Origin: Promethearchaeota archaeon
GTDB lineage: Archaea; Asgardarchaeota; Lokiarchaeia; Sigyniarchaeales; SOKP01
Reading direction: 5' to 3'
DNA length: 32,000 bases
Assembly: GCA_030606485.1 (NCBI GenBank)
Contig: JAUWGH010000012.1
Span: forward strand, 18,602 to 50,601
The position numbers were made by a program, and so were the translations under genes. The notes beneath the pieces are model-generated. The model saw nothing but the letters and a program-made list of their open reading frames with translations. It ran no database searches and was not told the origin of the DNA. Numbering within the stretch: the first letter of the stretch is position 1; the number at the start of each line of letters is the position of its first letter. Shown piece by piece: positions 15,738 to 19,086 of the stretch.

Positions 15738-16271
15738 ATGAGCAATAAGCCTTTATATGTATTTAAAATCATTGTCGTCGGCGAAGGCGGTGTTGGGAAA
15801 ACCACAATGATCCGCCGGTTATGTTACCAAAAATATATGCCCCAAAAGCTCACAATAGGCGCGGATTTGGCTTCATATGACTTGGAGATCGATGATAATC
15901 CTTTTAAATTACAGCTCTGGGATTTTGCGGGAGAAAAGAGGTTTAGATTCTTCCTTCCTTCTTATTGTAAAGGTGCAGTAGGCGCTCTCTTAGTATTTGA
16001 CCTCGCGAGATATTCAACCTTTAAAAAATTGAATGAGTGGTATGAGATAGTAACTCAAAATTCAAAACATCTTTCTATTATTTTAGTTGGTTCTAAATGC
16101 GATTTAGTGAAAGAAAAAGGTGCAATTGATTTTGAAGAAATACTAGAATTTCAAAAATCACATAATATTGAAGGCTATATCGAAACTTCGTCTAAAACAG
16201 GGGAAAACAATAAAGATGTCTTTGAACTACTAGTAAGAAAAATTAAAGATAAGATGGATAAAAATAAATAA
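15738..16271 (+). CDS. Rab-like small GTPase (Ras superfamily, Asgard type)
   Basis: G1 GEGGVGKT, G2 TIG, G3 WDFAGE, G4 GSKCD, G5 ETSSK. RabF-like motifs IGADL, KLQLW, RFRFFL, YCKGA and LVFDLA. No C-terminal Cys prenylation motif. Confidence 0.93.
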   Translation: MSNKPLYVFKIIVVGEGGVGKTTMIRRLCYQKYMPQKLTIGADLASYDLEIDDNPFKLQLWDFAGEKRFRFFLPSYCKGAVGALLVFDLARYSTFKKLNEWYEIVTQNSKHLSIILVGSKCDLVKEKGAIDFEEILEFQKSHNIEGYIETSSKTGENNKDVFELLVRKIKDKMDKNK

Positions 16272-16308: not shown

Positions 16309-17253
16309 TTATTCACTCATAAAATATTTTAATTCTTCAAGAGATAAACCTAAATAATGTATTGTTGCCCTATCAGTTCCGAGTAATGTCTGAATATTTT
16401 TTCTCTTCTTTCTATTTGTAAGTTCTTTCAACTTTGTTAAATCTGGAGTCTTATTCGCAATTTCAATCTGACCCGCTTTTATTGCGGCATCAATAAGATC
16501 TTGACCTGTTTTATTTCTAATAATTACTAGAGTTTCTTCTTTTACTGCACCCATTGTTCCAACTGATAAATCTGAATGTTCGGCTGCGAAATCCACGCAA
16601 AATTTACAACCCGGCAACGCTCCAGAAGCGCACATGAACCCAATCTTTAATGTTGTATAATTTGCCCCAGTACTAAACGGAGAAAGCATGACTTTACTAA
16701 CTCCTGTAAGATGGCACGGATTTCCAAGAAACCCAATTTTATTAGCACCATTTTCCCATGCTTCACCGATACCAGTGACTAATGGACCTGCTAATTGAAG
16801 GCTTCTTTCGGGGATATATTTTTTAGCTTCTTTAGCAGCTTTTACGACCACCGGGATATTATTATTTTTTCCTTTAATTTTCGTAGCATCCTTCGGTAAA
16901 ACCATTGCGTCAATCATTTTTTCAGAAAATGCTGCTTCAATTAAACCTAGTAAAACAGAATCCGCTTTTTTGGTTTTTACAGAGATTATGTCTTTATAAA
17001 ACCCAAGAGCCATATCTGCTCTTTTCTGACCAAAAAGCATTTCATCTATTTTTCCTAATGGAAGGTCTGTTCTAGGACAACTATTATAACATAAACCGAT
17101 TGTTTCTTGGCATTCAAATTCAAATTGTGGAAGTCCAACATCATCATAGGCTATATGGTGACAAAAAGCTCCGCAAGTGCCACAGTGGGCACATTTTCCG
17201 TTGTAAATAACTTCAGTCTCCAAATCAGGAGAAGATTTTTCAATTTTTAACAT
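16309..17253 (-). CDS. FrhB/FdhB-like protein (F420 hydrogenase/dehydrogenase beta subunit family) with N-terminal ferredoxin, apparently degenerate
   Basis: CAHCGTCGAFC and C...GLCYNSCPRT ferredoxin; GNPCHLTGV; GFMC; GCKFCVDFAAEHSDLSVGTMG; VIIRNKTGQDLIDAAIKAG. Confidence 0.82.
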   Translation of the reverse strand: MLKIEKSSPDLETEVIYNGKCAHCGTCGAFCHHIAYDDVGLPQFEFECQETIGLCYNSCPRTDLPLGKIDEMLFGQKRADMALGFYKDIISVKTKKADSVLLGLIEAAFSEKMIDAMVLPKDATKIKGKNNNIPVVVKAAKEAKKYIPERSLQLAGPLVTGIGEAWENGANKIGFLGNPCHLTGVSKVMLSPFSTGANYTTLKIGFMCASGALPGCKFCVDFAAEHSDLSVGTMGAVKEETLVIIRNKTGQDLIDAAIKAGQIEIANKTPDLTKLKELTNRKKRKNIQTLLGTDRATIHYLGLSLEELKYFMSE

Positions 17254-17286: not shown

Positions 17287-17529
17287 TTATTTTAAATATT
17301 GACTGCAAGAATCTTTAATTCTACGCCTTAAATGGCCCGGTTCTTTCCATACAATCCATGTACCTCCAGATTTCCTAAAATTTAAGTGATAATTATCTTC
17401 AATTTTGAAAAGTACCTTTTTAATGTAAGTCCAAGATAAATTTGTATTATCTTCGATTTCTTTAATGGAAACTGGATGGTTTTCTTCCATGTTATTGAAA
17501 AAAGTGACAATTCTTTCATAGCCACTCAT
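17287..17529 (-). CDS. Small winged-helix protein
   Basis: SIKEIEDNTNLSWTYIKKVL helix-turn-helix followed by the wing FRKSGGTWIVW. Ends 33 bp before the FrhB-like gene. Confidence 0.65.
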   Translation of the reverse strand: MSGYERIVTFFNNMEENHPVSIKEIEDNTNLSWTYIKKVLFKIEDNYHLNFRKSGGTWIVWKEPGHLRRRIKDSCSQYLK

Positions 17530-17843: not shown

Positions 17844-18635
17844 TTGATTCTATATAATCAAAAAGATATTGAATTGAAATTCCAACAAATGGAAGAAAAA
17901 ACAAAAAGAAAAATACCCAAAGAACACCATGAGTATTTAGAAGAAAAAATAATCCCTAATATTGATTACGATCCGCGATATGGAATGGATCCTGGGGTAC
18001 AGCTGGAAAATTATAATGAATACATACAAATTCTCAAAAAAATTTGTAGAAATGATGGAATTCTTATAGAAAAGGAGAAAAATAAACACCTTGAAAATCA
18101 TTTACTTAATGAAGAGGAACAGTTAGTAAAAGACATAGATATAAATAACCAAACTATATTGAATGCAATAGAAATATCAAGTGAAAAATTAAGGAAATTA
18201 AAACATTTTATTCAGTATCAGAAGGACAAAATTAAAGAGCTTGAAATACAGAAAAATCAAGAAATTCAAGATATAAGAGAAGAAAATATAAATTTAATGC
18301 AAGAGAAAGAGATTTTGGAAAGTAAAGTCTTTAAAGATCTCGTCTCTAAAGTGCTTACTAATATTCCATACTTACCTGCGTTACCTTCAAATCCAAATTT
18401 AGCTCAAATTCCTAGAGTTCATAGTGATATCGAAATAAAACGGATAAGAAGACCGCCAACGGTAAAAACACACCTCAATCCTAAAGAAAATGCTTTTCGT
18501 GCAGTAGTTGTGGAATTAAAAGGAGCACTTAAGAAAGGAAATCCTTTGAAGCCAATTGATCCGCAAGAATTAAAAGAGATAAAAGAAGAGCGTGAAAAAA
18601 GAATGAAAGAAATTAAAGATCGAAAACTTTTTTAA
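17844..18635 (+). CDS. Coiled-coil protein with Pro-enriched linker and C-terminal WH2-like motif
   Basis: Heptad-rich aa 75-165; IPYLPALPSNPNLAQIP and RRPP; FRAVVVELKGALKKGNPLKPID at aa 218-239. The start may be ATG 17889 rather than TTG 17844. Confidence 0.7.
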   Translation: MILYNQKDIELKFQQMEEKTKRKIPKEHHEYLEEKIIPNIDYDPRYGMDPGVQLENYNEYIQILKKICRNDGILIEKEKNKHLENHLLNEEEQLVKDIDINNQTILNAIEISSEKLRKLKHFIQYQKDKIKELEIQKNQEIQDIREENINLMQEKEILESKVFKDLVSKVLTNIPYLPALPSNPNLAQIPRVHSDIEIKRIRRPPTVKTHLNPKENAFRAVVVELKGALKKGNPLKPIDPQELKEIKEEREKRMKEIKDRKLF

Positions 18636-18762: not shown

Positions 18763-19086
18763 ATGGTAATAGTTATATGGCGTCAAATTCAACAAATTCA
18801 ACCAGGTAAATGGGATGAGTTAGAAGAGATTAACAAAAAATTCAATGAAATCGAAAAGAGGCTTGGATTTCCTGACAACAAGAAGCGATATCGTCACATA
18901 GTTGGGACCCAATATATAAATACCCTTATTATAGAATTCCAATGGGAGAGTATGGCTCAAATGGAAAAAACGATAACAAAAGCTGTCTTGGATCCTGAGT
19001 ATCAGAAACTTCAAGCTAAAGCAGAACCGATTATCGAAAGTAGCCAATGGGAATTATATATTCCATGGCCATTGGTTCCTCCATAA
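18763..19086 (+). CDS. NIPSNAP-like dimeric alpha-beta barrel protein
   Basis: IQPGKWDE...EFQWESMAQME...DPEYQKL...IIESSQWELY pattern; GGTG RBS 7 nt upstream. Confidence 0.65.
   Translation: MVIVIWRQIQQIQPGKWDELEEINKKFNEIEKRLGFPDNKKRYRHIVGTQYINTLIIEFQWESMAQMEKTITKAVLDPEYQKLQAKAEPIIESSQWELYIPWPLVPP

Follow-up and report, generated by a model that had tools for sequence, protein, structure and literature searches.

Eukaryotic proteins that nucleate actin or promote its nucleation, among them WASP/WAVE, Spire and Cobl, are driven by WH2 motifs, and in several proteins these motifs are presented from an oligomer: MIM/ABBA combine a dimeric I-BAR domain with a linker and a C-terminal WH2 motif, VopL/VopF join a WH2 array to a dimerization domain, and the tetrameric Ena/VASP proteins carry a G-actin-binding site. 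To our knowledge, prokaryotic WH2 motifs are known only from bacterial effectors that target host actin. The window analysed here, a stretch of 32,000 nucleotides from a Promethearchaeota archaeon (Lokiarchaeia; Sigyniarchaeales; GenBank assembly GCA_030606485.1, contig JAUWGH010000012.1, positions 18,602 to 50,601, forward strand), encodes a protein, P0013, that is a credible candidate for a new archaeal actin regulator. The best explanation, to which we give about an even chance, is that it oligomerizes through a coiled coil and displays WH2-like tails to Lokiactin. Actin control in Asgard archaea is viewed as mainly the work of profilins and gelsolins (10.1101/2025.11.30.690169; PMC12050087). 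The only WH2-like elements reported for Asgards in the literature searched are the gelsolin linker motifs LVDV, LKDV and LRRV, which contact actin in crystal structures (PMC9433394; PMC7444086; 10.1101/2025.11.30.690169), in agreement with an earlier note on this DNA, which had placed Asgard WH2-like motifs in gelsolins only. Each of these motifs is a four-residue stretch lying between one gelsolin domain and the next; it lacks an amphipathic helix in front and does not form a separate module, whereas the P0013 module is autonomous and combines with many domains.

On re-reading of the sequence, the open reading frame (ORF) at 17844..18635 on the forward strand, 263 amino acids when read from its TTG codon, is present, and its motif FRAVVVELKGALKKGNPLKPID occupies residues 218-239 of that reading (18495..18560), exactly as the earlier note had described. 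However, the start and residue numbers of that note are probably wrong. Translation most likely begins at ATG 17889, yielding a P0013 of 248 amino acids, because homologs of 248-249 amino acids begin MEEK; the TTG start is also disfavored because a TATA-like box falls inside the TTG extension, ~31-38 nt 5' of the ATG, a position that would imply a short-leader or leaderless mRNA. The 263-amino-acid forms of the protein in databases are gene-caller choices. Residues are numbered here from ATG 17889, which corresponds to the earlier figures minus 15. Heptad analysis and an AlphaFold2 (AF2) model built on nine homologs, with a mean predicted local distance difference test score (pLDDT) of 70, bear out the proposed order of coiled coil, Pro-enriched linker, WH2-like motif and charged helix. 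The features of the gene are as follows:

17844..17888, forward strand: 15-codon TTG-started extension, probably untranslated, as homologs start at MEEK
17851..17858, forward strand: TATA-like box 'tatataat', read from the sequence
17889..18635, forward strand: coding sequence of P0013, 248 amino acids plus stop; 29.5 kDa, isoelectric point (pI) 8.6
17952..18068, forward strand: conserved N-terminal region, residues 22-60 (NIDYDPRYGMDPG..LENY..Y.QILKKICRNDGI); small helical region, AF2 pLDDT 55-74
18081..18362, forward strand: predicted coiled coil, residues 65-158 (94 residues); single AF2 helix, pLDDT 81-97 over 71-150
18363..18479, forward strand: Pro-enriched disordered linker, residues 159-197 (IPYLPALPSNPNLAQIP, SDIEIKRIRRPP, RRPP); AF2 pLDDT <50 for 162-197
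18480..18536, forward strand: module helix 1, amphipathic, residues 198-216; AF2 helix with F203, V206/V207, L210 (position -10) and L214 (position -6)
18537..18560, forward strand: module loop G217-N-P-L220-K-P-I-D224, non-helical; Gly at -3, Leu at 0, then K-P-I-D
18561..18632, forward strand: module helix 2, E/K/R-rich, residues 225-248; AF2 helix 225-246, conserved K-R-M-x-E-I core

The N-terminal tail is modeled at low confidence, and the conserved N-terminal region (22-60) is almost invariant among close homologs, retains 36% identity in the distant homolog P0012 and matches no Pfam or NCBIfam family. An unbroken single heptad register spans residues 65-158, with one core position reading L,V,N,I,L,I,I,K,I,L,L, and this coiled coil is presumed to be an oligomerization domain. 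Of all regions, the linker is conserved least (identity of 18-26% in distant homologs), though P0011, P0012 and P0014 share a sub-motif within it, [DE]-I-x-R-I-[RP]-x-x-P. A reading of IPYLPALP as a MIM2-like (Vps4 MIT-binding) element was rejected, this stretch being absent from P0010, P0012 and P0014. In distant homologs, the N-domain (P0012 55-75; P0014 50-72) resembles a degenerate WH2-like motif, F-L-K-K-x-x-E-I-x-x-R-D-G-V-N-L-K-[SP]-[VT]. As a second WH2-like stretch it (RDGVNLKSVD in P0012, RDGVNLKPTP in P0014) was discarded as too weak (independent E-value, i-E, 0.009), and its P0013 equivalent, I-L-K-K-I-C-R-N-D-G-I-L-I-E-K, does not fit the pattern.

P0013 has nine close homologs, and P0012 and P0014 are further full-length homologs at greater distance; the homologs stem from at least seven studies and several genera and are not assembly duplicates of one sequence. 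The DNA of the window is present in cold-seep and marine-sediment metagenomes from seven studies, with no RNA listed among the public runs that carry it. Searches with the whole protein against Pfam, NCBIfam and PDB sequences returned nothing meaningful, the matches to Spermine_synth being sub-threshold noise. Against P0012, residues 198-225 are 50% identical and the other regions 18-36%; against P0010, the tail is 68% identical, the N-domain 77%, and the coiled coil and linker 26-34%. At larger divergence, this segment is conserved better than any other part of the protein, and in the comparison with P0010 it is second only to the N-domain. Several positions that the earlier note had singled out (L225, G232, L235 and the P and I after it, in its numbering) correspond to L210, G217, L220, P222 and I223, which are invariant in all relatives, as L214 nearly is; these core residues are unchanged across homologs down to 33% identity, and the invariant ones are also kept in a 148-amino-acid protein that carries the same tail after a ribbon-helix-helix (RHH) domain.

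A profile of the P0013 tail finds a second match in its own genome, a 50-codon ORF:

G000 C6:125006-125155 (= L041:1501-1650), forward strand: stand-alone 50-amino-acid module protein, between genes for a RimI-like acetyltransferase and pelota

The families of the tail and of this small protein align in hhalign with 96.1% probability (E 3.2e-9). The hidden Markov model (HMM) of the 50-amino-acid protein covers P0013 209-242 in hmmsearch (i-E 4.9e-11), with L220 and R238 present, the latter being the near-invariant helix-2 Arg of the module family, and P0013 is recovered at E 6.2e-8 in the genome-level profile search. By these comparisons, the P0013 tail is homologous to an order-wide Lokiarchaeal module of ~50 residues. 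The module profile matches 142 of the 153 sampled genomes of the order (f1 124/134, f19 13/14, f28 1/1, f29 4/4) and, among 400 Asgard genomes searched, only one outside it; no Pfam or NCBIfam model describes it. A third module-like match in the P0013 genome (C2:31562-31681) is spurious and belongs to a NifS-type gene. The stand-alone protein of most genera is close to a textbook WH2 motif, E-L-K-x-E-I-K-K-G-V-x-L-Q-K-V-D. The combination of N-domain and coiled coil with this module is a new architecture restricted to one genus: it is found in 5/5 genomes of P0013's own genus (G000 and four others) and in 0/149 others of the order, and also has metagenomic relatives.

In a sister family of the same order, proteins of 479-488 amino acids carry ten tandem copies of the module, including those of Ca. 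Lokiarchaeum ossiferum B35 and Ca. Harpocratesius repetitus FW102, for which exact-sequence look-up retrieved no database entry. The L. ossiferum gene is located as follows:

CP104013.1 4726363-4727826 (= L077:1864-3327), reverse strand: 488-amino-acid protein of ten tandem modules

AF2 predicts no compact fold for this protein (predicted template modeling score, pTM, 0.17), instead modeling ~36-residue helices split by non-helical, low-pLDDT loops at G-x-x-L-K-K-I-D, which argues against a folded repeat of solenoid type.

An experimental link to actin comes from this ten-copy protein. The P0013 genome itself encodes Lokiactin (G000 C6:228916-230055), three actin-family paralogs, profilins and gelsolins. 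An anti-Lokiactin co-immunoprecipitation (co-IP) in L. ossiferum has been reported, in which an Arf GTPase, profilins and gelsolins were discussed (10.1101/2025.11.30.690169). Listed in the same dataset is GNAMCCOK_04085, a protein of 56.41 kDa detected with 44 peptides at 70.5% coverage, with a log2(actin/IgG) of 4.53 (adjusted p 0.0021), compared with 4.44 for the bait actin and 3.97 for 2DGel1 (Supplementary Table 2, 10.1101/2025.11.30.690169). We identify the ten-copy protein as GNAMCCOK_04085 by its computed mass (56.45 versus 56.41 kDa listed) and its interpolated locus tag (4085.3). The interpolation took the gene's midpoint and used as anchors the two 2-domain gelsolins, whose genes were located and for which Table 3 lists the tags. 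The ten-copy protein is enriched as strongly as actin, yet goes undiscussed in that study (10.1101/2025.11.30.690169). A multi-copy module protein is associated with Lokiactin in cells, directly or via other proteins. By the same approach, the one-copy L. ossiferum protein (L111:413-622) corresponds to GNAMCCOK_02436, a GTG-started protein of 69 amino acids and 8.24 kDa (interpolated tag 2437.2). Three further proteins outrank actin in the co-IP and are unnamed in the text: GNAMCCOK_00333 (37.5 kDa, log2 9.2), GNAMCCOK_02751 (67 kDa, 7.7) and GNAMCCOK_04250 (20.6 kDa, 5.1).

The module also occurs fused to other domains. In at least five genomes of one genus it is joined to a domain with matches among solved structures of Asgard profilins (5zza_P, E 2.8e-11; 7pbh_A, 5yed, 5zzb), in the order profilin domain, linker, module and a conserved C-terminal region of ~55 residues that matches no known family. 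These fusions, of 251-258 amino acids, are:

L081:1517-2290, forward strand: profilin-module fusion
L082:1201-1953, reverse strand: profilin-module fusion
L083:764-1531, forward strand: profilin-module fusion
L084:1189-1956, reverse strand: profilin-module fusion
L085:1176-1934, reverse strand: profilin-module fusion

In the P0013 genome, the profilin nearest the fused ones (G000 C6:60138-60509, forward strand, frame of ~200 amino acids) has a different C-terminal extension, an amphipathic helix AFLDWIKAEDG lacking the L-x-K-x-D loop and the charged helix. A comparable arrangement is known from a trypanosomatid profilin, in which the profilin fold and an inserted WH2-like helix jointly engage one actin monomer (PMC10907219); there the helix is an internal insertion, whereas the module of the Asgard fusions is a C-terminal appendage and P0013 has no profilin domain. 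Other combinations include RHH domains (NikA/RelB-like), as RHH-module proteins of 119-148 amino acids, leucine-rich repeat (LRR)-module-RHH proteins of 423-434 amino acids and Ras-like GTPase-module-RHH proteins of ~317 amino acids:

L079:1823-3124, reverse strand: RHH-associated module
L080:1763-3031, reverse strand: RHH-associated module
L103:806-1777, reverse strand: RHH-associated module
L087:1234-1590, reverse strand: RHH-associated module
L105:785-1159, forward strand: RHH-associated module
L104:915-1358, reverse strand: RHH-associated module

The RHH pairing could serve as a dimerization cassette or as an adaptor from DNA to filaments. Prokaryotic precedents for a short C-terminal helix that docks onto an actin-family protein, in its hydrophobic groove, are Arcadin-2 of Crenarchaeota and ParR of type II plasmid partition, although both bind in an orientation opposite to that of thymosin (PMC5173319). 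ParR pairs its C-terminal helix with an RHH domain, like some module proteins; however, the module shows no sequence similarity to Arcadin-2 or ParR. A ParR-like role for the RHH-module proteins was not supported, three loci having neither actin-like nor partition genes within 5 kb. The repeated joining to DNA-binding RHH folds, together with the placement of the 50-amino-acid gene between those for the RimI-like acetyltransferase and pelota in every genus of the family that was sampled, would also suit a charged peptide associated with nucleic acid or the ribosome. We consider this improbable: the module ranges from acidic to neutral (computed pI 5.6 for the ten-copy protein of L. ossiferum), no nucleic-acid-binding family was matched, the synteny is limited to one family and may be simply inherited, and the profilin fusion and the co-IP would go unexplained.

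The consensus of the module agrees with a WASP-type WH2 motif at every defining position. Across 97 modules, position -10 is hydrophobic in 100%, position -9 is L/M/F in ~60%, position -6 is I/L/V/M in ~99%, Gly stands at -3 and Leu at 0 (97/97); K/Q/T, K/P, I/V and D follow the Leu, before an E-rich stretch and a helix with a hydrophobic stripe and a near-invariant Arg (90/97). In P0013, the hydrophobic residues at -10 and -6 are L210 and L214, within AF2 helix 198-216, and the linker and L-[KR]-[KRP]-[VTI] segment are represented by G217-N-P-L220-K-P-I223; position -9 is Lys, as in 20/97 modules. The spacing of the P0013 motif (hydrophobic -10 and -6, Gly -3, Leu 0, K-P-I) equals that of WASP-type WH2. 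A profile of 37 diverse modules searched against 177,635 PDB sequences finds N-WASP tandem WH2 (3m3n_W, E 6.3e-4) and Spire DDD (3mn7_S, E 0.0036) as its top matches, although both scores are inflated because these chains each contain three repeats; five of its nine matches are WH2 chains of N-WASP or Spire. In the reverse direction, the Pfam WH2 HMM has a single match in the 4.36-Mb genome of H. repetitus, inside the ten-copy gene, and one of its four matches in a third closed genome falls in the ten-copy ortholog. Genome-wide scans with this HMM give E-values of 0.14-1.3.

The best WH2-HMM matches in L. ossiferum (G220) and in G225 lie in other genes (15 bits, E 0.14-0.2), and a match in G117 is spurious, its gene encoding an LRR-associated protein:

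G220 C1:4228155-4228208, reverse strand: WH2-HMM match in a frame of 429 amino acids
G225 C1:2945442-2945489, reverse strand: WH2-HMM match in a frame of 229 amino acids

Two eukaryotic families are among the closest comparisons. With WH2 proteins (PF02205; N-WASP, WAVE, Spire), the module shares the amphipathic helix, Gly at -3, the L-[KR]-[KRP]-[VTI] segment, the placement in a disordered tail that follows a Pro-containing linker and the occurrence in single or tandem form; it differs in its sub-threshold Pfam score, Asp at +4, obligatory second helix, unit of 48-50 residues and confinement to one archaeal order. With β-thymosin, ciboulot and tetrathymosin it shares a unit of ~45-50 residues, an N-terminal helix, an LKKT-type segment, a C-terminal helix and stand-alone or tandem use, whereas its helix-to-Leu spacing is of the WASP type and its second helix is longer and more charged. 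The Pfam Thymosin model (PF01290) gives no match in the genome at E up to 10, and none in any module. By language-model comparison, a Thymosin-bearing cluster is the named family nearest to a 51-amino-acid module protein of G150 (0.85), an ortholog of the 50-amino-acid protein in the P0013 genome; this score is a lead only. For P0013, an arthropod shootin-1 cluster ranks third at 0.76, below the lead threshold of 0.9, and neither HMM nor BLAST relates the two proteins.

Several observations, collected in this and the following paragraph, weigh against P0013 as a WH2-type oligomer that acts on Lokiactin. Neither Asp at +4 nor a second helix bearing a near-invariant Arg belongs to the WH2 pattern. 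The tail falls outside the Pfam WH2 family: the gathering threshold of PF02205 is 23.1 bits, neither P0013 nor its tail matches at E up to 10, and no module protein reaches the WH2 or Thymosin threshold, the best WH2 score (13.3 bits, E 0.067) being the only Pfam match on the H. repetitus ten-copy protein. The P0013 subfamily's own motif profile finds no WH2 chain in the PDB at E up to 10. A regular expression for the WH2-like pattern (hydrophobic-x3-hydrophobic-x2-G-x2-L-polar-[KRPSH]-[VTI]) matches 14 ORFs in the 3.75-Mb genome of P0013, including those for PEPCK, LeuD and an HPS/RraA-like enzyme, so that the pattern alone would be weak evidence, no better than chance. The tail motif is nevertheless judged non-random because of its conservation and homology: with a core that is invariant down to 33% identity, a position in the best-conserved segment and significant homology to an order-wide module, a chance match without specific function is highly improbable. 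A motif-only profile of the 50-amino-acid proteins ranks designed TIM barrels ('DLQEALKKG') above N-WASP (E 0.83), suggesting that the pattern is generic. The WH2 likeness might then reflect convergence on a common helix-Gly-turn pattern in a self-associating helix-loop-helix that has no role with actin, as the hydrophobic stripe on helix 2 and the proximity of the module to obligate-dimer RHH domains and a coiled coil would allow. This is unlikely, as it sits poorly with the lack of a compact AF2 fold for ten copies and leaves the profilin fusion and the Lokiactin co-IP unexplained. Convergence of a genuine module with eukaryotic WH2 is possible because the module is confined to one order.

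With respect to the link to Lokiactin, co-IP demonstrates association and not direct contact, GNAMCCOK_04085 was not validated by the authors of the dataset, and the one-copy protein GNAMCCOK_02436 is expressed and not significantly enriched (log2 0.57, adjusted p 0.105), a loss of single copies during immunoprecipitation that fits either avidity or indirect binding. The module is also fused to RHH, LRR and GTPase domains without an obvious connection to actin, and no cytoskeletal neighbors of the P0013 gene lie within the window. The genes that surround it are:

15738-16271, forward strand: Ras-family GTPase, upstream neighbor
16309-17253, reverse strand: FrhB-like protein, upstream neighbor
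17287-17529, reverse strand: small helix-turn-helix-like protein, upstream neighbor
18763-19086, forward strand: NIPSNAP-like protein of 107 amino acids, downstream neighbor

This order, from the Ras-family GTPase to the NIPSNAP-like gene, is kept in close relatives, and the distant homolog P0012 has an Arf/Ras GTPase gene directly upstream and an FrhB gene nearby. It is possible, though doubtful, that the module docks another component of the actin system, such as profilin, gelsolin or a small GTPase, and not actin itself, with P0013 acting as a scaffold for that partner. Co-IP cannot separate direct from bridged association and also recovered an Arf GTPase, a profilin and gelsolins; the absence of enrichment of the one-copy protein, the fusions to profilin and Ras-like GTPase domains and the recurrent GTPase genes beside those for P0013 and its relatives point in the same direction. 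However, the GTPase adjacency may be coincidental and is weak evidence because small GTPases are very common in Asgard genomes, and if docking were of this type, the position-by-position agreement with the WH2 consensus and the first ranks of WH2 chains among the PDB matches would both be unexplained coincidences.

If P0013 is instead a coiled-coil oligomer that presents WH2-like tails to Lokiactin, a mechanism can be proposed, in which we infer direct actin binding, the mode of binding, the oligomeric state and the effect on filaments. P0013 would most likely self-associate through its 94-residue coiled coil, thereby holding out at least two C-terminal WH2-like modules on disordered, Pro-enriched linkers of ~40 residues. 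Each module may bind Lokiactin in the manner of WH2 and β-thymosin motifs: L210 and L214, on helix 198-216, would occupy the hydrophobic cleft of the barbed face; the extended segment would be held in place by L220 of G-N-P-L-K-P-I-D; and the charged helix 225-246 would follow the actin subunit or continue past it. Such an oligomer could bring several actin subunits together, so as to nucleate, tether or bundle filaments, while the N-terminal region (22-60) might dock a partner that sets the site of action. The predicted logic of an oligomerization domain, a disordered Pro-containing linker and a terminal motif that binds actin monomers is shared with MIM/ABBA, VopL/VopF, Ena/VASP and shootin-1, and the domain order is that of MIM/ABBA and, as the earlier note proposed, shootin-1; P0013 differs from these proteins in having no homology to them outside the motif and no I-BAR domain, EVH1 domain or true poly-Pro profilin site. 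A broader proposal, which we hold only tentatively, is that P0013, as a dimer or higher oligomer, nucleates or tethers Lokiactin in the WH2 manner and is one of several eukaryote-like deployments of the module in Lokiarchaeales (a 50-amino-acid monomer binder, a ten-copy array, a profilin fusion and a coiled-coil oligomer), which would amount to WH2-based control of actin independent of gelsolin and profilin, perhaps sharing ancestry with eukaryotic WH2.

As the module belongs to one order, it may be a lineage-specific or convergent invention and not the ancestor of eukaryotic WH2. The idea is accessible in cultured L. ossiferum, which expresses both the ten-copy and the one-copy protein, each present in the anti-Lokiactin co-IP data. 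If the proposal is true, archaea would possess a third class of actin regulator, built on an autonomous WH2-like module that is deployed as a sequesterer-like protein, in tandem, fused to profilin and as an oligomer, and this would bear directly on how actin nucleation was controlled before eukaryotes.

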